Below are positions 10,492-29,883 of a DNA stretch of 30,529 bases, piece after piece (within the stretch, counting starts at the first letter, position 1; every line of letters starts with the position of its first letter). Location of the stretch: assembly GCA_965220745.1 (NCBI GenBank), contig CBDCQT010000009.1:1-30529 (forward strand), in the 5' to 3' direction. Origin of the DNA: Alphaproteobacteria bacterium (lineage in GTDB: Bacteria; Pseudomonadota; Alphaproteobacteria; UBA828). The position numbers and the translations under genes are program-made. A model generated the notes under the pieces. That model did not search any database. It saw only the letters and a program-made list of their open reading frames with translations, and had not been told where the DNA came from.

Positions 10492-10571
10492 GTAACCGTT
10501 CGGGTCCAGGGGGATGAGGAGTTGGCTATCCGCTCGTTGGCAAGCTCACACCGGCGGCGGTAGGCGTGATT

Positions 10572-11453
10572 CTACCGATTGAGGGTGCGTTGCCAATCTT
10601 TTCGGAGGGTGCGGAGCCAGATGTCCTTTTTCGGCTGGGCTCGTTTCGAGTGCCTGTCGTAGCGGCCCCGGCCCTGGGTGGTGCCGACGCGGGTCCAGCC
10701 CGACGCCCGGTAGACGGCGCCGGTGTATCGCGGGGTCTCGACGAAGGTCTCGATCAGCACGGGGGTGGTGCCGTAGCGCTCGGTCCAGTCGGTGGGCAAG
10801 CGCCGGCGCACGATGGCGAGGATGTGCGAGCCGAGGTTGGGGATCTCGATCCAGGGCAATATCAGGAAGCGCGGGTTGTCGACCACGAGCGGCAGGTTCT
10901 TCTCGCGCATCTCCGGGGTCCACCCGATGAAGTTGTCGCGCGGGGCGAGCTTCCAGGCGGCGGTGGAGAAGCCGAGCATGGCGACGGGCCAGCCGTTTCG
11001 GTCATGGACGGCATAGCGCATCTGGGCGCCGACCAGGGTCTTGTGACCGAGGTAGTGGTAGCGGGCGACGAACTCGTTCCAGAGCCTGCCCTCCCGGGTG
11101 CTGTGCACGACGGTGCGGAAGTCGAGGGGGCGGACCTCGTCGAGGGTAGTCGGCGCGGGGAACAGCGGCGGCTCGGTGTCGGGTCCGAAGACGATGGGCT
11201 TGGGCCGGCCCCGCTGCCACCTGGGCGGCGGCAACTCGATGAGGCCGTCGCGGTGCATGGCCAGCATGGTGACGCGGGCCATCATGTCCTTCAGCCCGCC
11301 ATCGGGCTTGAGCCAGCCGATGCGCCGGCAGAACTCGATCGACAGGGCCCGGCGGGAGAGCGGGGCGGGACCGGCGATCAGCGCGCGCAACAGCGCCATT
11401 TCCTCGGTGGTGAAGTCGCGCCCGTAATAGCGGCACGCGGCCGCGCCGGTCAT
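10572..11453 (-). CDS. DUF4338 (Druantia DruA-like) domain protein
   Basis: RYYGRDFT, WNEFVARYHYLGH, AAWKLAPRDNFIGW, VVDNPRFLILPW, LIETFVE and YRASGWTRVGTTQGRG. The start overlaps the transposase stop (ATGA). Confidence 0.85.
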   Translation of the reverse strand: MTGAAACRYYGRDFTTEEMALLRALIAGPAPLSRRALSIEFCRRIGWLKPDGGLKDMMARVTMLAMHRDGLIELPPPRWQRGRPKPIVFGPDTEPPLFPAPTTLDEVRPLDFRTVVHSTREGRLWNEFVARYHYLGHKTLVGAQMRYAVHDRNGWPVAMLGFSTAAWKLAPRDNFIGWTPEMREKNLPLVVDNPRFLILPWIEIPNLGSHILAIVRRRLPTDWTERYGTTPVLIETFVETPRYTGAVYRASGWTRVGTTQGRGRYDRHSKRAQPKKDIWLRTLRKDWQRTLNR

Positions 11454-13615
11454 CCCGACGCCGCGAGTTCGCGCCGGCGCGCCTCGTTCATCGACCACGG
11501 CAGCCAGGGCGACAGGTCTTCCGGCGGCTCGCCGCCGTTCTCCGCGCACGCGGTCAGCCATTCCTTGAGCCAGCGCCGGACGTCGATGCCGTTGATCGCC
11601 AGCGTGCCGGCCACCGAGTACATCGTCGCCGTGAACCCGGCACCCTTCACGCTGTCCGAACCGAAGCATAATCGGCGCCCAATGACGAGTTCGCGCAGGG
11701 CAAGTTCGCCGCGGTTGTTGTCCATGGGCACGAACGGCTTGTCGACGAAGACGCACAGACCCTCGCGGTGGTTGAGAAGCGAGCGCAGCGGCTTGGCCCT
11801 GCGCGCCCTGTCCGTCAGTCCGGCCAGTTCCGCCTCGGCGGCTGCGAACAGCTCGTCGACCGCCTTCTTCAGTTTGGCGTGCGCGACGTCGAACGCCGGC
11901 GACTGTCGTTCGAGAGGGTGAGCGGGGTCGTAATGCTCCAGCCGCGCGTCGTTGAGCCGGTAGATCTCCGCGATCCGCTCGATCCATCTCTGGCACCAGC
12001 GCCTGAGCCGCACACGCCCGGCCGCGCAGTCGATGAACGAGCGCCTTTGATGCGCCCAGCACCATTGCAGGATCACCTTGCCGGCGAGATCGCGGGCCAG
12101 CTTCTTGTAGGTCGAGAGGCGGTCGCAGACCAGAACCATGATGCCCTTCGTCGAACCGAACAGCTTCATCGCAACCTCGGCGCTGCGCGAGGGATCGATG
12201 TGGAAGTAGACGGCGTCCGGGCTCACCGAGGTCCACAGCCAGGCGCGGCTCGAACGGCCTTCCTCGCGATAGGCCTGAACGCGCCAGGATGTTTCGTCGG
12301 CATGGCGCAGTGCCGCCTCGTTCTGGTGCGCGAGGATCGCCTCGGCCAACGGTTTGAACAGCGGCACGAAGCGCTTGATGCTGTCGGCCAGGGTCCCCGG
12401 CGAGATCGCCAGCCCCATGTCGGCCAGCCACGCCGCGACCCGATGCAGCGGCCGGCAGCAGACGAAGCGTTCATAGAGCATGCACGTCCAGACGCTGATC
12501 CCGTAGGGCGTGGTCTCGAACAACCGCGTCACCGGCGGCGCAGTCACCTCCCGCGGCGCGGAGGCGCAGTCGCAACTGCGGCGCCAGCGCGACCGGACGA
12601 TGGTGCGCTCGTAGGCCTCGACATCGATCTCGAAGAGGGTGGTGCAGCGCTCGCCGTTGGCGGCATAGGGCTTGCCGCAACGCGGGCAGATGCGCGCATC
12701 CTCCGGCGGGTCGCGCGGCTCCTTCTTCTGCCTGAGCCCGGCGCGCTGGGTGCGGCCGTGTCCGGCGGCGCCGCGCTGCTGGCCGCGCTTGCGCCCGGTG
12801 CCCGGCCTCTTCTGCCGCTCGCTTCTGCTGCCGTAGAGCGCCTTCGACAGGACGCTGCGGGTCGAGCGCAGCTTGTCGAGGTCGCCTTCCAGCTTCTCGA
12901 CACGCGCGGTCAGCGCCGCGTTCTCGCCCTTCAGATCCCGCACCTCGGCGCGCAGCCGGGTGTTCTTCTCCCGCAGCGATGCAATCAGCTCCGTGGCCCG
13001 AACGACCGCGGAACGCAGCCGGGCGTTGCGCTCGTGCAGCCACGCGATCGTGCCCTCCCGGACCCCTACCAGGCGCTTGGCCGCCGCGAGCCGCCGGTCG
13101 AACTGCTTTCGCAGAGATTCGGCCACGCGCTCGCCCTCGCGGTGCACCTTCGCGATCCGCGAGCGCTCCCGGTCGATGTCCTGCTTCAGCCAGTTGATCT
13201 CGTCCTGGTGGCGCACCTCGATGCGCTCCCGGCGCTCGTCAGACCTGCGCAACGAGAGGTAAAGATCGGCGATCTCGTCGTCCTGGGACTCAACCCTGCG
13301 CTCCAACGCCTTCATGGCCCGCGACGCGGTCTTCGGTGCGGCCACCTTGAGCTTGAACCGGCAGGTGTCGAGCCGCCTCGTCAGCGAGTCCGCAACCGCT
13401 CGGGCGTCCCTCTCCGATTGACGCAGTTCCTCGCGGCGCACCTCCGCCACAGCCGCGCGGCCCCGTTCCTCCTCGACGCGTGCCTCTGCCTCTTCAAGCA
13501 GAGACGCCCAGTCCGGCGGCTCGCACGCCGGCACCACGATGGCAGGCGACCACAGGGTGTCGCCGCCCTCGGCAGGCGTCAGGTCGGTGCAGATATCCGC
13601 GTCGAGAACCGCCAT
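11450..13615 (-). CDS. tnpC: IS66-family DDE transposase (TnpC) with a long N-terminal coiled coil
   Basis: LYGSRSER, CPRCG zinc finger, HADETSW, VLVCDRLSTY, CWAHQRRSF and MDNNRGELALR. Confidence 0.92.
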   Translation of the reverse strand: MAVLDADICTDLTPAEGGDTLWSPAIVVPACEPPDWASLLEEAEARVEEERGRAAVAEVRREELRQSERDARAVADSLTRRLDTCRFKLKVAAPKTASRAMKALERRVESQDDEIADLYLSLRRSDERRERIEVRHQDEINWLKQDIDRERSRIAKVHREGERVAESLRKQFDRRLAAAKRLVGVREGTIAWLHERNARLRSAVVRATELIASLREKNTRLRAEVRDLKGENAALTARVEKLEGDLDKLRSTRSVLSKALYGSRSERQKRPGTGRKRGQQRGAAGHGRTQRAGLRQKKEPRDPPEDARICPRCGKPYAANGERCTTLFEIDVEAYERTIVRSRWRRSCDCASAPREVTAPPVTRLFETTPYGISVWTCMLYERFVCCRPLHRVAAWLADMGLAISPGTLADSIKRFVPLFKPLAEAILAHQNEAALRHADETSWRVQAYREEGRSSRAWLWTSVSPDAVYFHIDPSRSAEVAMKLFGSTKGIMVLVCDRLSTYKKLARDLAGKVILQWCWAHQRRSFIDCAAGRVRLRRWCQRWIERIAEIYRLNDARLEHYDPAHPLERQSPAFDVAHAKLKKAVDELFAAAEAELAGLTDRARRAKPLRSLLNHREGLCVFVDKPFVPMDNNRGELALRELVIGRRLCFGSDSVKGAGFTATMYSVAGTLAINGIDVRRWLKEWLTACAENGGEPPEDLSPWLPWSMNEARRRELAASG

Positions 13616-13706
13616 GCGCGAGACGGTAGCGCATGCGCGAACTAGTTACCAGCGAAAACCAGTGAAAAGCTACGATCCCCCTGGACCCGAACGGTTACTG
13701 GAGTGT

Positions 13707-16335
13707 CGGCGCAGACGGTGAACAGCGCCTCATGGCACACGATGCCGCCGGGGCCATTCTGACGCTGCTGCCGTTTCCGACCCCGCTATTCCTCGATGAA
13801 GGGACCGGCGAGACCGGCGTCGCGGAAACGGAGCTGTCTCCTCACATGCTGTCGTGGTTGGCCGACGCGCCGGAGGTGCCGCATGAATCGGTTGGCGCGG
13901 TCGAGGCCAAGCTGTCGCGGATCGGCCAGCGCTCGCCCGTGCCCAGGCTGCATCGTGTAGAGCCGCGCACCGACGTTGCGCCGAAGCCTGTGCTGATCCT
14001 GTACGGCCGAGAGCAGAACGCCAGGCGCTGGAATGCCGGGGAAGACCGCAGCGGGCCCGGCGAGGACCTTTCTGCCGTCTTTCCCTGTGCCCTCCTGGAG
14101 ATTGCCTACGACGGCGTCGAGCGAAGGCTGCGCCCCGGCACGCCCGGTAACCACTTGAGCGACGCGCATCCAGGCGGCGATTCCCCGGTCGTCGTCCGGC
14201 GCGATCCTGAGCTGGAATCAGAATACCGGCGGGCGTTCGTGACGGCAGCGAAGCGCCATGGCGGCAAGCATCCTGACGCGTTGCGCTTCGACATCTCGCC
14301 ACCCGCCGGAGTGCAGGACGCCGATATCGTCTTCGGGCCGCTCCGGCCGGGCGAAGATGAAGAAGTTCCGGGAGGTCTCGACTTCGCCGGGCAGGAGGTT
14401 CCCGCTCTGCGCGCCGGGGGCTGGCGCGTCGAGATCGACAAGACCTGGCCGTTTCGCATCTACGAGGGGCCCGTCGCGTTCACGACCTCCCTGGAAGCGT
14501 CTGATTCCGACTGGTTCTCGCTTGCCCTTTGGCTTGAGGCGAACGGGCGGAAGTTCGCCGTCGCGCCGATCGTGCTGCAGTTTGTCGAGACGTTGCCGGT
14601 GGACGACCTGGGGCGGCTGGAAGAGGGCTTCGACGTCGAGAGGCATCTCGCGGGCCGGATGTTCTATGCCCGCTTCGAGGACGGGAGCTATCTCGCGATC
14701 GACGGCGCGCGGTTTGCGCGGTTCGCCGAGGCGTTCCTGGAAGCGCAGGGGCTGATCGGTTTCCATCCTGCGGAGGCGCGGCGCCTGTTCGAGTTGGCCG
14801 AGGCGCTGGAGGGCTGCGGCGCGCCGTGGACGGGCAGGCGCGAGCTGCTCGATCTCGGGGCCCGGCTGCGGTCCCTCGCAGAGGCGCCGGAAGTGCCGGT
14901 CCCCGGCGCGCTGCACGGCGAACTGCGCCCCTACCAGCGCGTCGGCTACGGCTGGCTCAAGCTGCTTTCGGAATGCGGCTTCGGCGGTGTGCTGGCCGAC
15001 GACATGGGGCTGGGCAAGACCGTGCAGACCCTGGCCTTGCTGGCGCACCGGCATCTCGAAGAGAAGACCGATCGCCCGAGCATTCTCGTGGTGCCGACCA
15101 GCCTGGTCGGCAACTGGCGGCGGGAAGCCGCCCGCTTCACGCCCGACCTGAAGCTCCTGGTCCTTCATGGGCCGGGCCGGCTCAGGCACTTCGGCGCCAT
15201 TCCCGAGCACCATCTGGTGGTCACCACCTACCCGCTGGTCAATCGCGATCACGAGGCGCTGTTCCGCCATGAGTATGACACCGCCGTGCTGGACGAGGCG
15301 CAGACGGTGAAGAACCCGGCGGCCGGGATCACCAAGCGCATCCGCGGCATCCGCGCGCGTCAGCGACTGGCGCTGACCGGAACGCCGATCGAGAACAGTC
15401 TCCAGGAGCTGTGGTCGCTCTACGACTGGCTGATCCCCGGCCTGCTGGGAAACCGCAAGTCCTTCGCGAAGCACTATCGCACGCCCATCGAGAAGGAGGG
15501 AGACCGGGCGAAGCAGCGCCTGCTGTCCACCCGGATCAAGCCCTTCCTGTTGCGGCGCACCAAGGAGGAGGTTGCCGCCGAGTTGCCGGAGAAGACCGTG
15601 ATCGACGAGTTGATCCCGCTCGAAGAGGGCCAGGCCGCTCTGTACGAGAGCATCAGGGCGGCAATGGATGCACGGATCCGCGAGGCCATCGCAGAGCGGG
15701 GCCTGGACGCATCGCGCATCACGATCCTCGATGCGCTGCTGAAGCTGCGCCAGGTCTGTTGCGACCCGCGTCTCGTCAAGCTGGACGCGGCCCGCAAGGT
15801 GGTGGAAAGCGCCAAGCGGGCGCGGCTGCTTGCGCTTCTGGAGGAACTCGTCGCCGAGGGGCGGCGGGTCCTGATCTTCTCCCAGTTCGTCGAGATGCTG
15901 CGCCTCGTGGAGGCCGATGTCGCGGCCCGCGGCTGGGACTACGCCATGCTGCATGGAAGCACGCAGGACCGGGACGCTCAGATCGCGAGCTTCCAGTCGG
16001 GAGCGCTGCCGCTCTTCCTGATCAGCCTCAAGGCGGGAGGCACGGGCCTCAACCTGACGGCGGCCGATACCGTGATCGTCTACGATCCGTGGTGGAACCC
16101 GGCGGTGGAACGCCAAGCCATGGACCGGGCGCACCGGATCGGCCAGGACAAGCCCGTGTTCGTTCTTCGCCTGATCGCCGAGCACACCGTCGAGACCGCC
16201 ATCCACAAGATGCAGCTGCGCAAGCAGGCCCTGGCCGACGCTTTGTTCGAGGGAACCGCCGGCGGTCCTCTGACACTCAGCGACGGGGATATCGATTCGC
16301 TCTTCGGTGCCTCGCCTGCCGCACCTTCGAGTTGA
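13707..16335 (+). pseudogene. 3' part of the SWIM-SNF2 helicase gene (complete SNF2 ATPase and helicase-C domains; open ORF 13732..16335)
   Basis: LRPYQ, LADDMGLGKT, VLDEAQ, LTGTPIEN, LKLRQVC, SLKAGGTGLNL and QAMDRAHRIGQ. In frame with 9725..10491 once the IS and one TSD are removed. Confidence 0.92.
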
Positions 16336-17429: not shown

Positions 17430-18512
17430 CGGGCTTTTTCAGAGTCAGCGAGAGTCCGGTAGACAGCAGAAGACGGGCTCGAAGGGTGGGAGGGAAATAA
17501 CGCTATGTCAGTGGCTTAGAGAGTCTCCCGGCGGGTGAAAGTGGGGTGTAGCGAATGTCCTAACGCCCCTGTGGCCCCCAGGCTCTCCTCTGCTTGAAGA
17601 GGCCTCAGCCCGAGGCCTCGCTGGGTTCATCAATTCGGCCGTCAACGTACCTGACGACTCGGCAACTGTCCATAGCCCATGAACTTCACCACATCACCCC
17701 AAAGTTGTCCACTCAAGAGATGTGCCTCGGCAGGCCGAATACCCGACCCATGCGGCGATGAACCATGCTGCGTTCCCGATCCCGTCCGGGGCTTCCGCCC
17801 CCGTCGTTGCAGCCTCCCTGCACGTCACCGCGACATCCTCCGTGCCGCTCAACGTGCCGGGACGAATTCTCGCCACAATTCCGCAGCCTTTGCAAGCCCG
17901 AAATTCATGCCGCGAGACAATGGCTTGGGGTTAAAGCGTGCAACAGGCATCGGCACTTCATGCCCCACCACCACGCAATCGTCATGCGGCTCTGGCGCGG
18001 CGTCCTCAAGGGCTGCGCTCGCATCGGCAACCCGGATCGCCTGTATCGCCGCAGCCTGCGGGCCGCCGGCACACCGATGGCGCGCCCCCATATAAAGGTG
18101 TCGGCGTACTGGCCGAGCGTGGTGGAGCCGCCGCTCGGCTGCCAGGACCCGGATGATTTTTTCGTCGTCCTCAATTGTTTGAACGCGGCGGGCGAGCGCC
18201 CGCGCGCGCCCGAGCCAGGCGGCAGCGGGGCTTGCATTCTTCGTCGCCATGCCGCGGTTTTGATGCCGGCGGCTTCCGGAGAGCACCCGGCCGCGGCGGC
18301 GAATTCCGCCATCAGGGCGCGCCACGGCGCGTCGCAATTGGCTCGTCCCGGCGCCATCGGCTTCATCGGCCATGCCGCCGCCCTGAACCCGGAAGTGCGT
18401 CCGGTACTCGACGGCCGGCGATTGCCTCTCGCACGCACGCCCTCCGCGTAGCAAGATGGGACCTTCCCGGAACGGCAGCCGACGCCGAACGACTTCAGGG
18501 AGCATCAACAGC

Positions 18513-19499
18513 ATGAGAGCAACGTTGATAGTGTTCGCGGCCGTTCTCGCGACCGGAGGGTGCCACCTGGTCGGGGACTCGGACCCGATGACCGAGGAGA
18601 TGGAGGAGGGACTCATCGACTTCTCCCGAACGACGTCGTTCGACGGCGACAAGCTCACCGTATTCGTGCGTGACGGAGAAGACGGGAAGCTGCACCTGAA
18701 CACGGCGCGCGACGCAGTGGAGACGAACGAGTTCCGCCCTCAAATCCCGAACCACTCCGGCCGGTCCTGGGTGCTGCGCAACGCCGCCCACGAGAGCACC
18801 ACGCAGGTCTACGCGCTTGTAAGCTGGAACAACGAGAACCCCGCCGACTATCTCGCCGCCGGGTGGTGGCTGCACCAGGGGGAGGGACAACAGCGCCTCG
18901 AAAGGGTCATCTTCGTCGACGGCCCCGAGATCGACCCGCTATTGAACCCGCCCGATCTGCCGGTGACGGGTAGGGCGCGCTACGTCGGGCGCAGCAGCGG
19001 GATATTCGGCTACGCCTTCGGCTCGGACTGGGCCGAGCTGGAGGGCGGCTACACGTACGACGCATACCGGGGGACCATGGACGTGGTCGCAGACTTCGAG
19101 GCCGGCACGCTCGGCGGGTGCCTGGGTTGCACGGGCGACCTCGTCGCCGACCGCACGCACCTCGAATACCGCTTCGAGCAGCTCCCGGAGCAGTACCTGC
19201 CGAAGGCGGATGCTCCGATGAAGGACTACGAGATCCACTTCGCACCCGTGGCGTACAACGCCGACGGCAGCTTCGAGACCGAGTTCGACAGCGCTGCGGC
19301 GAGCGTGCGCCATCCTGAGCGCGAAGTGACGGGGTCGCACGGCTTCTGGGGCGGGAGCCTTTCGGCCTTCGACGACGCGGCCGGCACCCCGAGGCTGATC
19401 GCGGGTTTCAAGGATGCGGGCTTCGAGGAGGAGGATGGGAGCCGGGGGTTCTTCTGGGGTGTGTTCACCGTGCTGAGCGAGAGCTTCGGAACGGAGTGA
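18513..19499 (+). CDS. Lipoprotein with a TbpB-like handle/barrel (probable Slam substrate)
   Basis: Signal peptide ending LATGG-C. DYLAAGWW, LPVTGRARYVG and VVADFEAGTLGG motifs are typical of TbpB-like domains. Confidence 0.75.
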   Translation: MRATLIVFAAVLATGGCHLVGDSDPMTEEMEEGLIDFSRTTSFDGDKLTVFVRDGEDGKLHLNTARDAVETNEFRPQIPNHSGRSWVLRNAAHESTTQVYALVSWNNENPADYLAAGWWLHQGEGQQRLERVIFVDGPEIDPLLNPPDLPVTGRARYVGRSSGIFGYAFGSDWAELEGGYTYDAYRGTMDVVADFEAGTLGGCLGCTGDLVADRTHLEYRFEQLPEQYLPKADAPMKDYEIHFAPVAYNADGSFETEFDSAAASVRHPEREVTGSHGFWGGSLSAFDDAAGTPRLIAGFKDAGFEEEDGSRGFFWGVFTVLSESFGTE

Positions 19500-19697
19500 C
19501 GGGCCCCGGACGGCCCCGACGATCAGGGCGAACTCGTCTGCCAAGGCCATGATCGCCGCGCTCACATGACCCGCTCATCCGACCCTCTGTGACGACCCTC
19601 CGCGCCATGGAATTCTGGCCTCCCACCACGCCCTCGGATACCATCGCCGGCGACGGTTGCAGCATGAGCACGCGGCCGCCCCGAAGAGGACGCGGCC

Positions 19698-20753
19698 ATG
19701 CGCTACGACGAATGCTACAAGTCGATTTTCTCTCACAGGATTTCCGTCGAGCACCTGCTCCGCTTCGTCGAGGGCATGATCGACGATGGCCCGGCGTGGA
19801 TCGCGGCCTTCGACCCCGAGACCCTGGAGCCGGTGCCCACCGAGCGCATCGACGACACCCTGCACCGCCACCTGAGCGACCTGATCTGGCGCGTGCGCCT
19901 GCGCGACGGCGGCGAAGACGATTGGGCCTACCTCTTCGTGCTGATCGAGTTCCAGTCTGCGGTGGATCACCTGATGGCGCTGCGGGTTCGGACCTACGTG
20001 GACCTGCTCTATCGCGGTCTCTGGGCGGATCGCCGCTTCGGCGCGTCCGACCGTCTGCCGCCGGTGCTTCCCGTGGTGCTCTACAACGGGAAGTCTCCGT
20101 GGACGGCTGCGGCGAGCGTGGAGGAGCTGGTTGCGCCGGAGGCCCGCCCCCCGAGCCGCATCGCCTCCGTGCCGACATATGCAGGCTCGGGCTACGTGAC
20201 GCTTGACGTTGGCCGGGTTGAAGCCGGAGATTCCGCACCAGTCGACGTGCTCTCACTTGTGATCGGCATTGAGCGGATGTCGTCGTATAGTGAGGGATAC
20301 GCGACGCTGCGTGAGGCGTTCTCCGCCCTTCGCGGCGCCGAGCACCGGCAGTTGCGCCGGACGCTTTATGACTGGTTCACTTTGCTTGCCGGGCAGGGCG
20401 CCGCAGGCGCTTTGATCGAGGGGTTCGAGGAGATGGAACGGATTCCTGAAGAAGGAGAGATGCGGACGCCGGTTCAGGACCGCGTGCGCGCATGGCGCGA
20501 AGCCGACCGTGAGCAGGGCCGCGAACAGGGCCGTGCGGAGGGCGTCGAGAAAGGCCGTGCCGAGGGCGTCGAACACGAACGCCTGCTGTTGCGGCGCCTC
20601 ACCGAGCGGAAGTTCGGCGCAGACATCGCCGAGCGCGCCGCCGCACTGTTGGCCGGGATCGGGGAGCCGGGGCGGCTGACCGACGTCGGCGAGTGGATCA
20701 TCGACTGCGCCACGGGCGACGAGCTGATCGCGCGGCTGGAGAACGCAGACTAA
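19698..20753 (+). CDS. Rpn family recombination-promoting nuclease / YhgA-like putative transposase
   Basis: DECYKSIFSH, SDLIWRV, YLFVLIEFQS, LPPVLPVVLYNG and C-terminal GREQGRAEG repeats. Confidence 0.88.
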   Translation: MRYDECYKSIFSHRISVEHLLRFVEGMIDDGPAWIAAFDPETLEPVPTERIDDTLHRHLSDLIWRVRLRDGGEDDWAYLFVLIEFQSAVDHLMALRVRTYVDLLYRGLWADRRFGASDRLPPVLPVVLYNGKSPWTAAASVEELVAPEARPPSRIASVPTYAGSGYVTLDVGRVEAGDSAPVDVLSLVIGIERMSSYSEGYATLREAFSALRGAEHRQLRRTLYDWFTLLAGQGAAGALIEGFEEMERIPEEGEMRTPVQDRVRAWREADREQGREQGRAEGVEKGRAEGVEHERLLLRRLTERKFGADIAERAAALLAGIGEPGRLTDVGEWIIDCATGDELIARLENAD

Positions 20754-21000
20754 CGCGAGCCGCCGTCCCCTCGCTGGACTTGGCGAGGGCTCGACACCGC
20801 CTCACGCCGCGTTGAGCGGAGCCGGTCATATTCTCGCTCCCATTCCGGCCATCAGCGCGGCGGGCAGGACGATCTTACCGGTGCCGGCGCAGAGGCGACA
20901 CCGCATCACCGAGCTTCCCTCCGGTCGATCTGTTCAGGCCCGGCATGGGTGCCGATGCCGTCGGCCACCGGCGCGACGAATGAGGATACGTGCCCACCGC

Positions 21001-22848
21001 TCATCCACTGCGTACACCGAAGCCGAGGTCGCGAACGGCCTTGCGGAACGCCGCCTCGGCCCTCGTCTGGACCACCAGGTGCTTATTCCCCGCACGCAGG
21101 CAGAGCTTCGCCAGGCGCTCGTCATCAGCGATTCTCGCTGCAACATCCTCGTCGACGCACTCGATCAACAGCGCCGTGCCGCGCGCCTTGAGCGCATCCG
21201 CGCCGCGCTCGACGTTGCGCAGGAAGCCCTCGACCCTCTCGGGCAGGGGCTGCTCGTCCCGTGCCGCCAGGAACGCGCGCAAGCCGTCGCCATCGTGCCC
21301 GCTCTCGAACGCCGCCAGCGTCCTGTCCCGCGCCAGGCGCCAGACGCCCTCCGCCTCGGCCTCCGCGAACGTCTCCAGCATCAGCCTCTCGTCCGCCGAC
21401 AACGCCCCGCCGGCGCACACCCTCAGGTCGGGGAAGACCGTCAGGGACGTACGCTCCAGAAACGCGCCCGGCTCGTAGGTGTCGGCGAGCCCCAGGCAGT
21501 AGGCGCCGAGCGCGTTCAGTCGGAAATACTGCAGCCCGTCATAGCGGCTGAGCCAGGCCAACTCGTCGCTCCCCGGCAGCCCCGTGAAATCCACTCGCGC
21601 TCCCTTGGGGTGGATATAGGCGACGTCGATCAGGCCCAGCGTCGCGGCGTACTCGAACAACACGCACAGAAGATAGCGGCCCTGCAGGATGTTCCAGCCG
21701 TGACAACCGTCATAGCCAAGGCTGTCGTAGTGAGAATCGAAGAGGTAGAGCTTCCACGGATCGCGCGTGATACCGAAGTCGAAGGACGCCGCCTGCATGA
21801 AGCGCGAGAACTCGTCGAAGCGCACCCAGCGGCCCAGCGGACATTGCTCCAGCGCCTCGGTGACCACCGGGCGGCGCGTCGATACCGCAGTCATCGCGCG
21901 CTTGCCCTTGCCGCGGCTCTGGCCCTTGATGGCGTCGATGCGGCTGAACTCGTCGAGCAAGTTGCTCTTGATCCAGCGTTGCCAGAGGTGGCGCAACGTC
22001 TCCGCTGCTGGCGCGCCCAGCGCTGCATGGCCCTTCTTCGTCAGCGCCAGCTTCGAGCCCCTGAGCTCGGCCAGCTTGCCCGCCTGCACCAGCCACGGCC
22101 AGGCGTGCGCCTTGATGGGGCCGACCGCCTGCTCCCAGCTCTCCCGCTTCTCGGCAAGGTCGTAGAAATCGCCCCCATCCAGCTCCCCGGCGATGGCCGC
22201 CGCCGAGGCCGCCGAGGCCCGCCGCGTCTTCGCGCTCACCGCGACCCGGCCGAGATCGATCAGGCGCAGCACAGCGACCAGGTCCCTCTGCGCCGCGCGC
22301 TCCATGTCGCGCCGAACCAGCGCGACCCGGTCGAACTTCGGTGTCTCACCTTTGGGCACGTAGCCGCGCTGCCGCCGGTCGACCGCCTCCGGCAGCTCGT
22401 CCTCGGCAGCGAGCGCCGCCTCGGGCGGCGCGGGCACGAACCCACGCAGACGCTCCGCCAGATCGGGCGGGATGAACGGTGCCGAGCCCACGTGACCGCC
22501 GCGGAAATGAAGAAAGAGGCGTAAGGGCAATGCACCGGGGGCGCCGATCCCGTCGAAGCCCGCAGGAAAAGCGTCGTACTTGGCCTCGAACCGCGCGGCA
22601 TCGAAGCCCTCGGCATCGTGCAGCGCCTCGCCCACCGCCAGTCGTTGAATCTCGTCGAGACCGTCCCACAGGAGGCCAAGCGAGGCCCCGCTGAGACGAC
22701 CCTCGATGGCCGCGATCATGTCGGCCTTGCGCGTGGGCCGCGGCTTCGGCACTGAGAGCCAGTTCACCATGACCGTGAGGTCGCTGTTGTTCAGCGCGGC
22801 GAGCGCCTTCGCCAGGGTAGAGGTCCAGTCATCGGCGATACGGACCAT
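21001..22848 (-). CDS. Hypothetical protein with a C-terminal XPB/Ssl2-like helicase-associated domain
   Basis: 615 aa, GAGGGA RBS. C-terminal VWRLARDRTLAAFESG....LRAFLAAR..QPLPERVEGFL resembles Helicase_C_3. No Walker motifs. Confidence 0.65.
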   Translation of the reverse strand: MVRIADDWTSTLAKALAALNNSDLTVMVNWLSVPKPRPTRKADMIAAIEGRLSGASLGLLWDGLDEIQRLAVGEALHDAEGFDAARFEAKYDAFPAGFDGIGAPGALPLRLFLHFRGGHVGSAPFIPPDLAERLRGFVPAPPEAALAAEDELPEAVDRRQRGYVPKGETPKFDRVALVRRDMERAAQRDLVAVLRLIDLGRVAVSAKTRRASAASAAAIAGELDGGDFYDLAEKRESWEQAVGPIKAHAWPWLVQAGKLAELRGSKLALTKKGHAALGAPAAETLRHLWQRWIKSNLLDEFSRIDAIKGQSRGKGKRAMTAVSTRRPVVTEALEQCPLGRWVRFDEFSRFMQAASFDFGITRDPWKLYLFDSHYDSLGYDGCHGWNILQGRYLLCVLFEYAATLGLIDVAYIHPKGARVDFTGLPGSDELAWLSRYDGLQYFRLNALGAYCLGLADTYEPGAFLERTSLTVFPDLRVCAGGALSADERLMLETFAEAEAEGVWRLARDRTLAAFESGHDGDGLRAFLAARDEQPLPERVEGFLRNVERGADALKARGTALLIECVDEDVAARIADDERLAKLCLRAGNKHLVVQTRAEAAFRKAVRDLGFGVRSG

Positions 22849-22904
22849 CGGCCAGTTATCCCTCGTTGATGCCGATGCGGCCATGACGATCGATCCGGCC
22901 GCGC

Positions 22905-23064
22905 TCACGGCATGATATCGGCGGCGATGCTGGCCGCCACCAGGGCCGCAGATTCCTTCACCGAGTCCTGTGCCGGGTGCGCGTACCGCGCGGTGCTCTG
23001 CAGCTTCCTGTAGCCCAGGAGTTCGCCGATCATCGTGAGTTCATGGCCCAGGACCAGAGCCCGC
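22905..23064 (-). pseudogene. Degenerate duplicate of the last 160 nt of integrase 2
   Basis: Ungapped match to 24971..25130 with about 18 mismatches (~89%). Translates RALVLGHELTMIGELLGYRKLQSTARYAHPAQDSVKESAALVAASIAADIMP*. Confidence 0.92.
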
Positions 23065-23128
23065 AAAGGCCTTCCCGATGTGCACCCAAACTTGCGGTCG
23101 ATACCTGATGGATGGACTACGGATCAGT

Positions 23129-24007
23129 CTAGGCATGAGGAAGACTCTGCCGCATGTCCGGGATGCCGGTCAGAAAGATCGCCTCATGCCGATGACCGGA
23201 ATACGCGCAGAAGACGTATTCGTTCCAGTGGTTGGGACCCGGACCGTACTTCATCAGATGACCGTGCGGGTCATCCGTCCTGGGCGGCTTCTTTGCCATC
23301 ATCCGCGCGAGCTCGCGCTCCAGATAGTCGACAAAGGCTTGTTCGGGCCAGTCCCGGAAGACGTAGGGCGTGTTGAACACGATATGCCGGCGGCACAGGC
23401 TGTTGGGCGGTGGAAGCACACGCACGAACCAGACCTCCCCCTCGCGGCCGGCATAGCCGGCGGGAACCGTGCAGGAGACTATCTCCCGCGTGCCGACCTC
23501 GCGCAGCAGGACCCCCTCGCCCTTGCTGCCGCAATGGACGTAGAAGCCCATCCTCGAGTGCTGCATCCGCTCAATGGCGTCGATCAGCCAGGACGGGCAA
23601 TCGAACTCGGGCGCGATCCGCAGGATGCAGTTGCCCATGGTCTCCCGACTGCTTCCGAACTGGACGTCGAAGAACGCCCACATCGTGAAATAGCTGGCGG
23701 TCAGCGGACTCATCGGCGGCCCGGACGGCAGGTACTCGTCCTCGGCGTCGCCGACGATCCTGACGAAGCCCTTCGCCTCTCTCATCCCGGAAATAGATTC
23801 GGCCATGAGGGAGACGACGTTCTCCGCCAAAGCGTAGATGCCGTGACACGGCTCAAGGTCCGCGAACTTGCCGGGGACCGGCCCCTCGCCACCGAAACCG
23901 GCTTCGAGGGCCATCTTCCTGCCCTCCCGCCAACCCGCCAGATCGACGACCTTCGAGCCGCGGGACGTGAGAATCTTCCTTGCGATCTTGTCGGAAACGG
24001 AACCCAT
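23129..24007 (-). CDS. Hypothetical protein (~292 aa)
   Basis: Globular-looking ORF (EDEYLPSGPPMSPLTASYFTMWAFFD..., YWNE-like HWNEYVFCAY). Start is uncertain and could be further upstream. Confidence 0.7.
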   Translation of the reverse strand: MGSVSDKIARKILTSRGSKVVDLAGWREGRKMALEAGFGGEGPVPGKFADLEPCHGIYALAENVVSLMAESISGMREAKGFVRIVGDAEDEYLPSGPPMSPLTASYFTMWAFFDVQFGSSRETMGNCILRIAPEFDCPSWLIDAIERMQHSRMGFYVHCGSKGEGVLLREVGTREIVSCTVPAGYAGREGEVWFVRVLPPPNSLCRRHIVFNTPYVFRDWPEQAFVDYLERELARMMAKKPPRTDDPHGHLMKYGPGPNHWNEYVFCAYSGHRHEAIFLTGIPDMRQSLPHA

Positions 24008-24209
24008 GGCGTTCTTCCGGCAGTCTTCTCTCGTGGGCCTCGCCCGTCTACACGGAAACTTGGCGGGTGCGGGCGTGCCCACGGCTCGAATGTCTCCCTC
24101 CCCGCCGTCGGCGAAGAACAGCTTGGAGAGGGGCGGGCGGCGCGTAGCATTTTCGGCGATCCGCGCCATTCCAGAAACTGTTCAGTGCCCAAGCCCCTCA
24201 CCAGATGGC

Positions 24210-24536
24210 TCAGGCCACGGGACGAGCGCCGTACACCGCCACCTTCCCAAGTCTGTCGGCGAGACGGTCCTGTTCCCGCTCCAGATCGTACTGGCTTTGC
24301 AGACCCATCCAGAACTCCGCCGAGTTCCCGAAGAAGCGCGAGAACAGCAAAGCCGTCTCAGCCGAGATGGAGCGCTCGCCGCGCACGATGGCGTGGATGC
24401 GGCGGGGGTCGACACCGACCGACCGCGCCAGCCGATACTGAGTGACCTTCAGCGGAACCAGGAACTCCTCATTGAGTATTTCACCGGGATGGATGGGGTG
24501 CAGCTTGCGGCCCTGTTTCCGTGTCGACTTTCCCAT
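24210..24536 (-). CDS. higA: HigA family antitoxin (HTH)
   Basis: PIHPGEILNEEFL, ISAETALLFSRFFGNSAEFWMGLQSQYDL. Confidence 0.93.
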   Translation of the reverse strand: MGKSTRKQGRKLHPIHPGEILNEEFLVPLKVTQYRLARSVGVDPRRIHAIVRGERSISAETALLFSRFFGNSAEFWMGLQSQYDLEREQDRLADRLGKVAVYGARPVA

Positions 24537-24571
24537 CCGCCTGCGTCCTTCCCGTCGCGCCCGTCACGACC

Positions 24572-24853
24572 TCAGTGGTAGTCCACCATCTCAACGTCGT
24601 ATGCGTCTCCCTGCCTCCACGAAAAGCAGATCCGCCAGCGATCGTTGATCCGAATGCTGTACCGGCCCCTTCGGTCCCCCGACAGCGTTTCCAGCCGGTT
24701 CCCCGGAGGCACACGCAGGTCGTTCAGGCTCCGCGCGCTGTTCAGCATCATCAGCTTCGCCTGTGCGCGCCGCTGAAGGTCGGCGGGCAGACGCCTCAGA
24801 CGCTCCCGCCTCGCGACCGCTTCGGTGTCGGCGTTTCTGTAGCTCTTGATCAT
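24572..24853 (-). CDS. higB: HigB (RelE/ParE superfamily) toxin
   Basis: MIKSY.., [40 protein letters not shown]. Lies upstream of the antitoxin. Confidence 0.93.
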
Positions 24854-24875
24854 TACCGATGGCCGCACCACGCTA

Positions 24876-24902
24876 TTAGCGCGTGGCGCTAACTCATGTC
24901 AA
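24876..24902 (-). promoter_or_regulatory. higBA promoter/operator
   Basis: Perfect -35 TTGACA (24897..24902, minus strand) followed by palindrome TTAGCGC-N3-GCGCTAA (24876..24892). The -10 is weak. Confidence 0.6.
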
Positions 24903-24970
24903 ATCTCACCCGCATCACGCCAATGGTCGGGGCGGGCCAGTGATCGTCAGGCGGGAGGATCGGGCCACTC

Positions 24971-26140
24971 TCACGGCATGATATCGGCGGCGATGCTGGC
25001 CGCCACCAGTGCCGCGGCCTCCTTCACCGAGTCCCGCGCCAGGTGCGCGTACCGCGCGGTGCTCTGCAGCTTCCTGTGCCCGAGAAGCTTGCCGATCATC
25101 GTGAGGTCATGGCCCAGCGCCAGGGCGCGCGACGCGAAGCTGTGACGCAGGTCATGAATCCGCACGTCGTCCAGACCGGCGTGCTCTCTCACCTTGTACC
25201 AGTAGTAGGTGAGCTGCATCTGCCGCTCGCCCGCCTCCGGGCCCGCGATCACCCAGGGATTGCCCGCGAGGCGCGGCAGCCCGGCCAGCACACGCGCAGC
25301 CGCAGGCGAGAGCGGAACGATCCGGGGACCGGTCTTGCTATCGGCCAACCTGATCTCGTTCCGCTCCAGCGCCACGTCCCTCCAGCGAAGCGTCAGCACC
25401 TCGCCGGACCGGCACCCCGTCAGCGTCAGCAGCCGGAACGCCGCCGCGACGTGGATGGGTAGCCGGCCCTCGGCTTCGAGATCGTCCAGGGTCTGGCCGA
25501 GACGGCGGAACTCGTCTTCGGTCAGGAAGCGCTCGGGCCGCCGCGTCCGGTAGGGCTTCACGAAGCGGCAGGGGTTGCTGCCGCCCGGCAGCAGCCCCCA
25601 CGCCTGCGCTCGGTTCAGCATCCGGGACAGCGCCCCAACCGCGTCGTTTGCCGCCGTCGGCCTCTTGCGCAGGCGATACTGAAGCTCGGCAACGTGCGTG
25701 CGGTCGAGCTCCGTGATCGGCAGCTTGCCCAGCCTCGGCAGGATGTTCCGCTCGATCGTCCGGCGGTAGCCCATGGCGGTGGCCGGCTTGCAGTGAACCG
25801 CCACGTGCTCGCGGAGGTAGCGCTCCGCGAGCTCCGCCACCGTCGGCCCGCCCTCTGCATCGGGTTTCCCGCCCCGCTCGTCGCCGGTCTCCATGCGGGT
25901 GAGGATCACGGCCGCCTGCCGGCGCGCCTCGTCCACGGACAGGGTGCCGTGGCGGCCTACGGCGATCCGCTTCGAGCCGCGCCGGCCCCTGCGCTGGACC
26001 ACGTAGGTCTTGGACCCGTTGGGATAGACCCGGACCCCGAAGCCCGGCAGGTCCCGGTCCCAGCACATGATCTCCTTGTCCTCTGGGGTCAACGCGTCGA
26101 CCACACGGTTGGACAGCGATCTCTTCTCCAGTCGCGGCAT
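24971..26140 (-). CDS. Tyrosine recombinase/integrase 2 with an N-terminal arm-binding (DUF4102-like) domain
   Basis: WDRDLPGFGVRV; catalytic LTGCR, SKTG, HDLRH, LGH and RYAH are intact. Confidence 0.95.
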   Translation of the reverse strand: MPRLEKRSLSNRVVDALTPEDKEIMCWDRDLPGFGVRVYPNGSKTYVVQRRGRRGSKRIAVGRHGTLSVDEARRQAAVILTRMETGDERGGKPDAEGGPTVAELAERYLREHVAVHCKPATAMGYRRTIERNILPRLGKLPITELDRTHVAELQYRLRKRPTAANDAVGALSRMLNRAQAWGLLPGGSNPCRFVKPYRTRRPERFLTEDEFRRLGQTLDDLEAEGRLPIHVAAAFRLLTLTGCRSGEVLTLRWRDVALERNEIRLADSKTGPRIVPLSPAAARVLAGLPRLAGNPWVIAGPEAGERQMQLTYYWYKVREHAGLDDVRIHDLRHSFASRALALGHDLTMIGKLLGHRKLQSTARYAHLARDSVKEAAALVAASIAADIMP

Positions 26141-26151
26141 GTCCCGTTCTC

Positions 26152-27372
26152 CTACGCCGCCTCGACCGGCGTCATGCCGTCGGCGTCGGCCTGGGCGGCG
26201 GCACCCTCCATGCGCAGGATGTCGTCCTCGATGCTGCCGCCCACGCGGGCGGCAGCCACCTTCTCGGCCTCCTGCGACAGGTGCGCATACCGCGCCGTGC
26301 TGCTCACGTCCGTGTGGCCGAGAAGGCGGCCGATCATCGGCAGCTGAAGACCGAGAGCCAGGGCGCGAGACGCAAAGCTGTGACGCAGGTCATGGATGCG
26401 CACGTCCTCGATCTCTGCCTTCTCGCGCACCCGGTGCCAGTGGCTGGTCAGCGTCGCCAGGTGGCGGTTGGGCTTGCTCCCCGTGATCACCCAGGGGCTG
26501 CGCCTCACCCGCTTGATCCCCGCCAGGACCTCCAGCACGGCGGGCGTCAGCGGCACCATGCGCGCACCGGTCTTCGCGTCGCGCAGGCGAATCTCACCGG
26601 CCTTGCGGTCGATGTCGCTCCACCTCAGCGTCTGTATCTCCCCGAGCCGGCACCCCGTCAGCATCAGAAGCCGCAGCGCCGCCGCAGCCCGAGCCGACAC
26701 CGGGCCCTCCGCCTCAAGCTCGCACAGTGCACTACCGACACGCCGGTACTCGTCCTCCGTGAGGAACCGCTCGCGCCGGCCCTCCCTGTAGCGCTGCACG
26801 AACCGGCAGGGGTTGCCGTCGCGTGGCCCGACACCCCACGCCTCGGCCAACGAGAACATCTTCGACAGCACCATCAGCGCCCGGTTCGCGGCACGCGGCG
26901 TCTCCCGCAGTTCGTAGTGCAGCGCCGCCACCTCGGCACGCCCCACCTTGTCCAGGGGCAGGGTGCCCAGCGCCGGCAGGATGTGGTTCCTCAGAGAGCC
27001 CTTGTAGATGCCCTGCGTGTGGGCGTTGCAGTGCACCATCACATGGGCCTCCAGATAGCGCTCGGCCAGTTGGGCGATGGTGAGCGCAGGGAGGGGTCTC
27101 GCCACCGGGTCCTCGCCCTTCTTGATACGGGTGATGGCGGCAGAAGCCTTCTTGCGCGCCTGCTCAGGGGTGACGTCGCCGTGGCGACCGAGCGAGACGC
27201 GCTTGATGCCCACCGGCCCGCGGGACTGCACGATGTAGATCTTGCTGCCCGAGGGATAGACCCTCACGCCGAAGCCCGGCAGCTCCCTGTCCCAGAAGGT
27301 GGTGTCCTTGCCCTCGACGGCGAGCATGTCGACGGTGCGCTTCGAGATCGAGAGTTCACTTCGCCTGGGCAT
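26152..27372 (-). CDS. Tyrosine recombinase/integrase 1, paralogue of integrase 2
   Basis: WDRELPGFGVRV; LTGCR, AKTG, HDLRH, LGH and RYAH are intact. Stop is 11 nt before integrase 2. Confidence 0.95.
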   Translation of the reverse strand: MPRRSELSISKRTVDMLAVEGKDTTFWDRELPGFGVRVYPSGSKIYIVQSRGPVGIKRVSLGRHGDVTPEQARKKASAAITRIKKGEDPVARPLPALTIAQLAERYLEAHVMVHCNAHTQGIYKGSLRNHILPALGTLPLDKVGRAEVAALHYELRETPRAANRALMVLSKMFSLAEAWGVGPRDGNPCRFVQRYREGRRERFLTEDEYRRVGSALCELEAEGPVSARAAAALRLLMLTGCRLGEIQTLRWSDIDRKAGEIRLRDAKTGARMVPLTPAVLEVLAGIKRVRRSPWVITGSKPNRHLATLTSHWHRVREKAEIEDVRIHDLRHSFASRALALGLQLPMIGRLLGHTDVSSTARYAHLSQEAEKVAAARVGGSIEDDILRMEGAAAQADADGMTPVEAA

Positions 27373-27537
27373 CGGGTATCTCCCTGGTACGCGCCGCCCT
27401 GCCGGCCGGGGTCGTCGGCGGGGCGCTGATTCCGCAGTCGCCTCTCACCGTCACCCGACGACCGAATGAATTCGGATTCCGGGCTTCCGCCGCCTCGCGG
27501 CGGGAAAATTCGGGATCGGTCGGAATGGCCAAAATTA

Positions 27538-27664: not shown

Positions 27665-27726
27665 CTCTGACGTCAGAATTAGAACAAACGCTACACGCAC
27701 CTGTGGAAAAGGAGAGCCTCGAAGCC

Positions 27727-29883
27727 ATGAAGAAGACGAAGCTGACTCGCAGTTTGCTGGCGGCGTGCTCGATCGTCGCCCTCTCGGCCGTCATGTACGG
27801 CTGCACTCACAGCGGGGACGATCCGGTGGTGATGGAAGACCCGTCGGAGCCGACGCCTTACGAGACGGCCATGACGGAAATTGCAGCGGCCGATACGGCG
27901 GAGGCAGCTCAGGCGGCCTACGACGAGGTGGACCAGACCGCAATTACCGGCGAAGAGGCCCAGAGTCTTCAGATGGCGCTCGCCAGCCGGCTGGAGACGC
28001 TCGCGACGGCCGCTCGTGAGGAAGCGCAGAAGATGGATCTGGCGGACGCCGCCGACATGATCGACACGTCCGACCTGTCGACTGCGCAAGCCATCGCCGA
28101 CGCGACCACCGCGATCAACGCGCTTAAGGCCGCGATCGCCGCAGCGGTCGACGTCGACGACACGTCGATGTACCAGACGATGGTCGACAACGCCGAGACG
28201 GCCGTGATGACGGCGCAGGGTCATCTCGACACCCAAGGGCGCATGATGGCGCAGCGCATGGCGATCTCGAACGCCGTCACGATGGCCCGGACGGCAGTCG
28301 CCGGGGTCGACGATGACTCTACCGATTCCGAGGTGGCGGCGGCCGACAGCGCGATTACCGCACTTGAGGCTGCGATCGAGGGCGCGGCCGATCTCCCGGC
28401 GGACGATCCCGACGTTGCCAGCGCCCGTGGAACGCTCGCCACGCTCAAGGGCACACTTTCCGTAGCCAAGGATAGCCGGGATGATGCGCTGGAAGACGCT
28501 GACAAAGCGGCGGCGGAGGCCGCCGCCAAGCTGGGCAAGGCCATGCACGCGGCGCTGGGGGGGCCCACTGCGGCTGGTAACGCGCTGGACAACATCGGCA
28601 GGGACACCCCAGCGAATTTTGGCCTGCAGGCTAACGGTACCCTCAGGATTGATGCTGCGGCAAACGCGGGGTCGTTTGCGCCCGTGGGGGGCACAGACAC
28701 TGATCCGGATCCCGTGACACTTGAGGCCGGCGCTTCCCCCGGGGCGCTCGGTTCGTGGAACGGTACAGACTACATGCACATGGAGGGCACCGGCGACGAC
28801 AAGGTGGTCAACGAGGCCCGGGTATACAACAACAAGGGTCCCGGGAAGAGGGAGGCGTTCGCCGATGCCCTTCCTAGTGGTGTGACGATCGCAGAAGCTA
28901 ACGTTGGCGGCGCCGTGCCCGCCCAGATCAGCGATCTTACCACCGCCATAAAGGGGTATATCGCCGTGAACAGCGGCACAACCTTCACAACGGAGCTCGA
29001 TATCGACAAGGTGATGGCCGCCGCCTTCACGCACTCGGGAACGCAGACCCACGCGATACCAGAGCAGCGAAATTCTGTCTCCTTCCGCGGCACTTACGAC
29101 GACGCACCGGGCGAGTACCGTTGCGTTACAGGTTGCTCTTCGACCAACGACGGAACCGGAAGCCCGAGCGGTTTGGGCGGCACTTGGTTCTTCAAGCCCG
29201 ACGCGGGCGCGATGGTGCAACAGCCCGATGCCCACTACCTGTATTACGGATGGTGGGTGAGCAAGGACAATGACGGCATGCCGACGGCGGCCAGCGCGTT
29301 CGTGGGTAGATTTGGGACCGCCGGTGATGACTCCGCCACTGACGATGATGGCCTCAACGCTGGTTGGAGCGGTACTTACACCGCCGGCACCACCCTCACC
29401 GGCTCGGCGAGGTATGAAGGCAACGCCGCGGGCAAATACGCCATCGACAATGTGCTCGACGGCACGGGCCATGGCGGCCACTTCACGGCGGATGCCGAGC
29501 TGACCGCCACGTTCAGCGCTGCTGACGCTGACGATGTGGGTATCACCGGCACGATCGACAACTTCCGGCTCAACGACGGGTCCGACGATCCGGGCTGGAG
29601 CGTGTCGCTGCATCAAACCGGATTTGGGAGCGGCGGGGCGATCGATGCGACAACGGCCACAGCCACCAACGCTAACGACAACAATGCCGACGGCACGACT
29701 TGGTCCTTCGGCGATAACGCGGCGCCGGAGTCCGGCGCCTGGAGCGGCATGATGTACGACGAGGCTGTGACCGGGGATGATGACGACGGCAGCAACATCC
29801 CGACCACGGTCACCGGCACGTTCTATTCCGAGTTCAGCACCATCGGCCGGATGGTCGGGGCCTTCGGCGCTGACAAGCAGTAG
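27727..29883 (+). CDS. Large surface lipoprotein: Ala-rich helical stalk plus TbpB-like handle/barrel (probable Slam substrate)
   Basis: MKKTKLTRSLLAACSIVALSAVMYG-C lipobox; YLYYGWW, LTGSARYEGNAAGKY, GHFTADAELTATF, ITGTIDNF and MVGAFGADKQ. Confidence 0.85.
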   Translation: MKKTKLTRSLLAACSIVALSAVMYGCTHSGDDPVVMEDPSEPTPYETAMTEIAAADTAEAAQAAYDEVDQTAITGEEAQSLQMALASRLETLATAAREEAQKMDLADAADMIDTSDLSTAQAIADATTAINALKAAIAAAVDVDDTSMYQTMVDNAETAVMTAQGHLDTQGRMMAQRMAISNAVTMARTAVAGVDDDSTDSEVAAADSAITALEAAIEGAADLPADDPDVASARGTLATLKGTLSVAKDSRDDALEDADKAAAEAAAKLGKAMHAALGGPTAAGNALDNIGRDTPANFGLQANGTLRIDAAANAGSFAPVGGTDTDPDPVTLEAGASPGALGSWNGTDYMHMEGTGDDKVVNEARVYNNKGPGKREAFADALPSGVTIAEANVGGAVPAQISDLTTAIKGYIAVNSGTTFTTELDIDKVMAAAFTHSGTQTHAIPEQRNSVSFRGTYDDAPGEYRCVTGCSSTNDGTGSPSGLGGTWFFKPDAGAMVQQPDAHYLYYGWWVSKDNDGMPTAASAFVGRFGTAGDDSATDDDGLNAGWSGTYTAGTTLTGSARYEGNAAGKYAIDNVLDGTGHGGHFTADAELTATFSAADADDVGITGTIDNFRLNDGSDDPGWSVSLHQTGFGSGGAIDATTATATNANDNNADGTTWSFGDNAAPESGAWSGMMYDEAVTGDDDDGSNIPTTVTGTFYSEFSTIGRMVGAFGADKQ

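Follow-up and report, generated by a model that had tools for sequence, protein, structure and literature searches.

How does cargo come to be stacked behind an integrase gene, divided by pieces of the 3' end of that same gene? The question is raised by contig CBDCQT010000009.1 (assembly GCA_965220745.1, positions 1-30,529), the whole of which, 30,529 nucleotides (nt), is called the window here; coordinates without a locus label refer to it. In the window, the second of two tandem P4-type tyrosine integrase genes (int1 and int2) is followed by an array of gene modules, with orphan copies of the int2 tail between them. A preliminary description had proposed that one cargo after another enters at the int2 3' end, the old tail and the older cargo being pushed outward each time, and this is supported by nested related loci, by two tail relics and by the younger age of the second module. 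As far as comparison of sequences can tell, the feature is real and serial displacement is supported. The array is best read as C-terminal displacement anchored on the integrase gene, through homology-anchored recombination within int2, a reading to which we assign a probability of about 0.5.

The window was compared with 80 related loci (L-numbers), fetched out of 512 confirmed relatives, every one of them a draft or metagenome assembly. L001 and L002 are separate assemblies, ~95% identical to the window, and the three are counted as one locus. Among the other loci L003 has integrases with 86% DNA identity to those of the window.

Both integrase genes lie on the minus strand, separated by 11 nt, and their products are 53% identical. 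The int1 gene (26152..27372) encodes a protein of 406 amino acids (aa; Pfam Phage_integrase 7.5e-27, Arm-DNA-bind_3 5e-13) and int2 (24971..26140), whose 3' end anchors the array, a protein of 389 aa (Phage_integrase 4e-23, Arm-DNA-bind_3 2e-10). The two proteins score above the cut-offs for PF13356, PF14659 and PF00589, that is, for the arm-binding, SAM-like core-binding and catalytic domains, and both translations contain HDLRHSFASRAL, LLGH and ARYAH; we take HxLRH, LGH and RYxH to be the names of the catalytic motifs in the C-terminal part of P4-type (Arm-DNA-bind_3 / DUF4102) integrases. The int1 gene has an extension of 19 codons (26152-26208) past the point where int2 ends, and in L003 this extension holds a perfect 32-nt palindrome (1782-1813), immediately ahead of where int1 stops and int2 starts. 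There is no tRNA gene in the window, hence no tRNA/tmRNA neighbour of the kind usual for P4-type integrases, and an Rfam search of the window gave no match. Across the related loci, a tRNA gene was found in 3 of 48, in just one of them less than 400 nt from an integrase gene.

The clearest sign of displacement is a direct repeat of 173 nt. Copy 1 (24958..25130, minus strand) is the current int2 tail, comprising codons 338-389, the stop codon and 13 nt past it; copy 2 (22892..23064, minus strand) spans the same codons, stop and 13 nt and is a decaying orphan 2066 nt downstream of the int2 tail, behind a higBA pair and a hypothetical gene. The copies are 87.9% identical over 173 nt (blastn E 3e-56, with self-blast in agreement), so that the repeat reported earlier as a 160-nt copy at 22905 is confirmed at a slightly greater length. 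Copy 2 translates to 52 residues with 86.5% identity to int2 338-389 (tblastn E 6e-22), and scores E 8.8e-33 with a nucleotide profile of int2 tails drawn from 25 other loci. At E<=10 this general profile finds exactly three sites in the window, the int2 tail, copy 2 and the int1 tail; the check by a nucleotide hidden Markov model of integrase C-termini, as proposed earlier, thus recovers copy 2 and neither of two shorter traces. In the alignment the left end of the repeat falls within the SFAS|RAL codons, and the LGH motif has become LGY in copy 2. The same structure is present in L001 and L002 and is therefore not an assembly artefact. Copy 2 carries an in-frame stop in L001, while the L002 copy, apart from its edges, resembles int2 at 93-94%, probably through gene conversion, to judge by the pattern of similarity.

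An older relic lies at 20933..20981 (minus strand) and corresponds to approximately the last 46 nt of the coding sequence of an int2 tail of the L003 type, strongly decayed and with the stop codon lost. The preliminary description had listed a trace at 20941..20979. On its own sequence this trace is not significant: the relic is marginal (25/39 ungapped, third best among 60,982 positions), and the general int2-tail profile misses 20933-20981 at E<=10. It is nevertheless genuine by comparison with L003: an alignment of window 20981..20846 with L003 2960..3095, the region in which the L003 int2 ends, shows identity in 72.3% of 137 nt. With a 93-nt L003 tail as the query, the relic is the best tile of the window outside the integrase tails and copy 2, with a score of 25, which was reached in 0 of 2000 shuffles (shuffle maximum 17). 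The int2 stop codon is lost in L003, and the window relic shares the loss. Directly after the relic stands the stub of a small zinc-ribbon (zf) gene (20826..20912, minus strand), with the first 27 codons and one CxxCxGxG motif left. The intact zf gene, with two CxxCxGxG motifs and a start that overlaps the int2 stop, is found in L003 (3032-3271) and L005 (8972-9313); the L005 protein shows a weak DnaJ_CXXCXGXG match of 1.9e-4, below the Pfam cut-off, and such a small CxxCxGxG protein may assist the integrases as an accessory factor.

For the two genuine relics it is correct, as had been claimed, that similarity falls with distance from the integrase and that each interval holds one module. The third trace, at 19643..19663 (minus strand, 16/21), is at chance level, has no support from any related locus and is excluded from the feature. 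Its 21-mer matches at >=16/21 at three other places on the same strand and two on the other strand, and 24 of 256 random 120-nt regions (9.4%) match some tail 21-mer equally well. Two further signals were rejected. A fuzzy search with the stop-codon junction motif gave 18 matches in the window, where simulated sequence gives 20 on average, and these uninformative matches include the look-alike at 19555-19568, beside an indel boundary with L002. The exact 10-mer GCCGCGCTCA occurs twice in the window, as it does in 7 of 100 shuffles.

All genes of the array lie on the minus strand up to the Rpn gene, and PADLOC assigned no family to any gene of the array. Module 1 consists of two parts. In the first, higB (24572-24871; Pfam HigB-like_toxin PF05015 3.7e-17) and higA (24210-24536; Pfam HTH_3 PF01381 1.3e-8) make up a type II toxin-antitoxin pair of the HigBA kind, in which, according to Pfam, the gene for the RelE-fold toxin precedes that for the helix-turn-helix (HTH) antitoxin. 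The second (23129..24169) encodes a hypothetical protein of 346 aa, which has no Pfam or PADLOC family and only unnamed hypothetical proteins as Atlas neighbours. Module 2 (21001..22848) is a gene for a helicase-associated protein (Helicase_C_3, Pfam 2.7e-10); its start was set at the ATG common to L004, although the open frame extends to 22908. Module 3, an Rpn/YhgA-like nuclease gene on the plus strand (19698..20753; Pfam Transposase_31 7.5e-17), is convergent with int2 and belongs to the old backbone. On the outer side of Rpn follows a lipoprotein-like gene (18456..19499, plus strand), within a 1.2-kb stretch (18342-19571) that is absent from L002, where position 7664 jumps to 7712; this stretch makes one more module of the presence/absence type, situated at the array's outer end.

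The order of events can be read from related loci, which show the array in nested states. In L003 the order is int1-int2-zf-Rpn, uninterrupted. In L004, int1-int2 are followed by ~1 kb with two small open reading frames of no assigned family (a different first module, X), the helicase-associated gene and Rpn, and the junctions between X, module 2 and Rpn are formed without any int2 tail. The window has int1-int2, module 1, a tail, module 2, the tail relic, the zf stub and Rpn. Apart from the window, module 1 is confined to L001 and L002. Module 2 shares 85% nt identity with L004 12153-13986, the homology starting at the start codon. Upstream of int1, the same lipoprotein gene region flanks the pair in the window, L003, L004 and L005.

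Synonymous divergence (dS) separates the backbone from the cargo. For int1/int2/Rpn it is 0.30/0.32/0.30 between the window and L003, 0.59/0.58/0.63 between the window and L004, and 0.57/0.49/0.64 between L003 and L004. These three genes are equally diverged and therefore form a backbone of common descent, so that the present integrases did not arrive late. Between the window and L004, module 2 has a dS of 0.38, against 0.58-0.63 for the flanking genes, and the proportion of synonymous differences (pS) is 0.298 over 475 synonymous sites in module 2 and 0.412 over 896 in the backbone; the pS difference is 0.060-0.169, and 0 of 5000 bootstraps reversed it. Module 2 therefore arrived between int2 and Rpn after the backbone lineages had split. 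Since an L003-type tail and the zf stub lie beyond module 2, the point of entry was inside the int2 coding sequence, and int2 received from outside a tail with an ordinary stop codon. The 173-nt copy marks a further displacement tied to module 1, which may have taken place in this lineage or in a donor that supplied both modules in one piece.

Remnants of the same kind are not peculiar to this locus. Tandem integrase pairs were found in 29 of the 80 fetched loci, in genomes labelled Alpha- and Gammaproteobacteria, Binatia, Syntrophobacterales and Acidobacteriota, although such bin labels may be wrong; a megablast search of a plasmid collection with window 19500-27500 gave no match. Profiles of the first and the last 213 nt of each integrase, run over all the fetched loci, returned 13 orphan tails, or 11 with the window, L001 and L002 counted once, the others being in L010, L012, L019 (twice), L024, L028, L067, L069 (twice) and L072. 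Only four orphan heads were returned (L007, L024, L029 and L031), of which those in L024 and L031 come from frameshifted near-complete genes. Among remnants, retention of the 3' end is thus far commoner than that of the 5' end. The preliminary description had named a lack of repeated tails in other loci as counting against its proposal, and no such lack is seen: orphan tails occur in nine further loci, and tails downstream on the same strand are seen also in L010, L012, L019, L027, L028 and L069. The common left breakpoint that it had expected is not borne out, as the other loci scatter from int2 residue 85 to ~376. The breakpoint is at residue 85 in L027, 100 in L019 and L067, 148 in L072, 162 in L069, 269 in L028 and 322 in L024, followed by 338 for the window copy, ~366 in L012, ~372 in the second copies of L019 and L027, and ~376 for the window relic. 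In L019 (12100-12300) and L027 (2560-2760) the second integrase continues in frame via a Pro-rich linker into a duplicate of its last helix (...AARIAxxIGxDILP), the tail being thus duplicated within a single reading frame.

On the two sides of the integrase pair the gene contents differ. Upstream, homology ends at the int1 start or within 240 nt of it, and the genes are mostly ordinary metabolic ones. Downstream of int2, transposases, porins, toxin-antitoxin pairs, CRISPR-Cas, reverse transcriptase and similar genes are found, and from such contents the island cargo starts directly after int2. In L013 and L016, which belong to the same genome record, two tandem-integrase pairs that are 85% identical each have an enoyl-CoA hydratase gene before them, which may point to the natural target of the integrases.

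From the relics, their order, the nested states in the relatives and the younger age of module 2, all of which are observed, we infer a recombination that would have run as follows. The old island backbone would be int1-int2-zf-Rpn, surviving in L003. At least twice, DNA starting within the 3' end of a donor int2 and reaching the donor's downstream cargo would have recombined into the resident int2, which would retain its 5' part, gain the incoming tail with the second catalytic His and the Tyr, and be followed by the new cargo; the displaced resident tail would be left behind this cargo as a decaying orphan. The helicase-associated module would have displaced the L003-type tail and the zf gene, and then the higBA-hypothetical module, with an int2 tail of its own, the 173-nt tail. 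Such an exchange could combine a homologous crossover in the conserved integrase gene with an illegitimate far join (homology-facilitated illegitimate recombination), or it could be a single crossover with a circle bearing a partial int2, and the integrases would not need to act on a site in their own gene.

We consider this homology-anchored route the most likely, ahead of integrase catalysis. A homology anchor on the 5' side would predict that 3' stubs are in excess, and the anchor explains, besides their dominance, their varied lengths and the occurrence of some joins without a stub; at the tail-less joins of L004, an illegitimate join may have been made within the resident tail or past it. 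Runs of ~35-40 nt that are identical in copies 1 and 2, as read by eye from the alignment, offer sufficient length for homologous pairing. No crossover point was visible along int2 by sliding identity or by dS of successive segments.

Several observations weigh against displacement by homology-anchored recombination. Five downstream sequences (those behind window copies 1 and 2, in L004, in L005 and in L003/the relic) all diverge 13-16 nt past the int2 stop. In pairs of related loci, DNA homology nearly always ends between -18 and +30 nt from int2 codon 389, and among the listed pairs it runs on past int2 only between the window, L001 and L002 mutually and between L003 and L005. The left breakpoints of the window and L010 agree within ~7 nt. 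A sharp junction past the stop is expected of a site-specific event, and homology alone leaves the first placement of cargo unexplained. In addition, the argument on history rests on three close relatives (L003, L004 and L005), and stronger codon constraint could account for part of the lower dS of module 2. Because of the sharp post-stop junction, a reading in which the integrases catalyse the events stays alive, though we hold it rather unlikely: Int1 and Int2 would site-specifically insert integrase-less circles, bearing an attachment site like the int2 tail, at the int2 3' end, in an integron-like, self-targeting capture. Beyond the junctions and the window-L010 breakpoints already given, the younger module 2 between int2 and Rpn in two lineages, the tight module boundaries (including the L004 homology that begins at a start codon) and the same-strand downstream tails of the six loci named above agree with it. 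Yet in other loci the left breakpoints span 290 codons, the L004 junctions have no tails, no module was found at two different array positions, and the L028 repeat runs 600 nt into a second, duplicated porin gene, which is not cassette-like. The orphan tails decay freely, with the in-frame stop in L001 and 12% divergence, and are therefore not kept as sites. Neither copy 2 nor copy 1 folds better as single-stranded DNA than shuffled sequences do (z -0.70 and +0.14, respectively), the post-stop sequence has no conserved motif beyond the closest relatives, and no core motif for integron-like capture was found. Marginally less probable again is a broader version, in which integrases with a putative attachment site overlapping the int2 stop would capture and release integrase-less modules recognised via a piece of int2, a second and unrelated integron-like invention in genomes of symbiont type whose labels name several phyla.

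That islands and integrase-less elements accrete at att sites is established, and the modules could each be the cargo of a separate integrase-bearing island, the inner integrase genes having been deleted later from the 5' side. Truncated integrases with many breakpoints are indeed common in the family, L028 and L069 resemble partial second copies with a downstream gene of their own, and L024 and L067 have orphan tails without a complete integrase upstream within 10 kb. Arrival of whole islands in tandem, followed by deletion, fits L028 and L069; for the window it is disfavoured, and we regard it as improbable. The equal dS of int1, int2 and Rpn in all pairings makes the present pair the old one, with the same lipoprotein region upstream of int1 in the window, L003, L004 and L005. 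If redundant genes were being deleted, 5' and 3' stubs should be equally frequent, unlike what is found, and no direct repeats flank the int1-int2 pair, where the longest exact matches average 7.6 nt and those in controls 7.9 nt. Least probable, and clearly so, is the absence of any process, the 173-nt piece being the stump of a third integrase lost by random deletion and the other traces noise. The third trace is noise, as this reading would have it, and the relic at 20933-20981 is not significant by sequence alone; against L003, however, the relic is significant and the zf stub follows in the right order, L003, L004 and the window have nested gene contents, module 2 is younger, and 3' stubs are in excess.

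The closest known pattern is that of the C-terminal displacement and orphan arrays of Rhs, contact-dependent inhibition (CDI) and type VI secretion system (T6SS) effector-immunity loci. For T6SS effector-immunity arrays and Rhs loci, homology-facilitated illegitimate recombination with the conserved part of the gene as the anchor has been proposed (PMC5361080, citing Jackson 2009 and Poole 2011). As in such arrays, the 5' part of the gene is kept, a new 3' end is gained with downstream genes, and the relics are older with distance. Displaced tails are likewise accompanied by their former companions (copy 2 by module 2; the relic by the zf stub and Rpn, as in L003), and the modules are horizontally acquired and later than the backbone (module 2 by its lower pS, module 1 by its restricted occurrence). 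In the window, unlike in those arrays, the anchor is an integrase gene and the exchanged tip is a conserved catalytic tail in place of a polymorphic toxin domain with its immunity gene; the cargo consists of separate genes (higBA, hypothetical, helicase-associated), and a site-specific recombinase that could take part is encoded on the spot. Islands that insert into tRNA/tmRNA or protein genes restore the 3' end of the target, with the displaced fragment marking the far boundary (PMC4383910). The likeness is that incoming DNA brings a replacement 3' end and serial events yield repeated fragments, such islands also forming tandem arrays; the difference is that here the gene of the integrase itself would be the target, integrases are absent from the inserted units and no tRNA gene is nearby.

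With integrons the array shares a tyrosine recombinase gene beside mostly co-oriented, tightly bounded modules, of which the newest is next to the recombinase. It differs from them in that the P4-type integrases have an arm-binding domain, which IntI-type integrases do not, and in that insertion is at the int2 3' end and not at an attI site upstream of intI. In contrast to attC sites, the repeats are gene fragments without hairpin potential, the L004 junctions have no repeat, and the modules comprise up to three genes. Cis-mobilizable elements (CIMEs) are similar as integrase-less, repeat-flanked modules beside an integrase module. The repeats of CIMEs are att sites in the 3' end of a host gene, whereas the repeat of the window comes from the tail of the integrase itself and its att role is putative. 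In phage Mx8 and SSV-type elements attP is inside int, and recombination alters or splits the integrase C-terminus. Those cases concern the element's own integration into a host site, whereas int2 of the window remains whole while additional cargo builds up behind it. A literature search, mostly at the level of titles and beginnings of abstracts, found no description of arrays anchored on an integrase's own 3' end.

Displacement anchored on int2 would mean that a process known from polymorphic toxin loci also works on a quite different kind of gene. If the integrase gene is a landing pad, the gathering of toxin-antitoxin and defence-type genes immediately behind the integrases of such islands would be explained. 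Because each event would rewrite the catalytic tail of the integrase, cargo gain and integrase evolution would be coupled. Orphan integrase tails could serve annotators as a marker from which the order of acquisitions is read. Were the events catalysed by the integrases, the array would represent a new gene-capture system.

The surroundings of the integrase pair show further features. Genes for Slam (surface-lipoprotein assembly modifier, PF04575) and for large lipoproteins accompany the pair in the window (628-2451 and 27703-29883) and in L004, L005, L006 and L014; the lipoprotein gene upstream of int1 encodes 726 aa, and its 5' region is conserved in L003, L004 and L005. A conserved non-coding block (17572-17906) is common to the window, L002, L003 (4940-5444) and L004. 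In L003 this block leads via a hairpin and a ribosome-binding site into a lipoprotein gene, and the homology of the window, L002 and L004 breaks exactly at the start of that gene. The ends of the L003 contig (1-218) are inverted repeats of 218 nt, 99% identical, derived from the 5' end of the same lipoprotein gene, and could reflect two divergent paralogues or an invertible segment; self-blast found no inverted repeat of this kind in the window.

An IS66-family element occupies 10492-13698, with perfect 24-nt terminal inverted repeats (10492-10515 and 13675-13698) and a DruA-like (PF14236) coding stretch behind the transposase; related copies are present in L010 and L020. It interrupts a SWIM/SNF2 helicase gene (9725-10495 and 13732-16335), for which the best PADLOC matches are DpdE and ZorD. 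Further out, a YspA/SLOG-domain protein and a DUF7146-Toprim primase-like protein are encoded at 3920-4918 and 5697-6884, respectively, which suggests that the whole window lies inside a larger integrative element.

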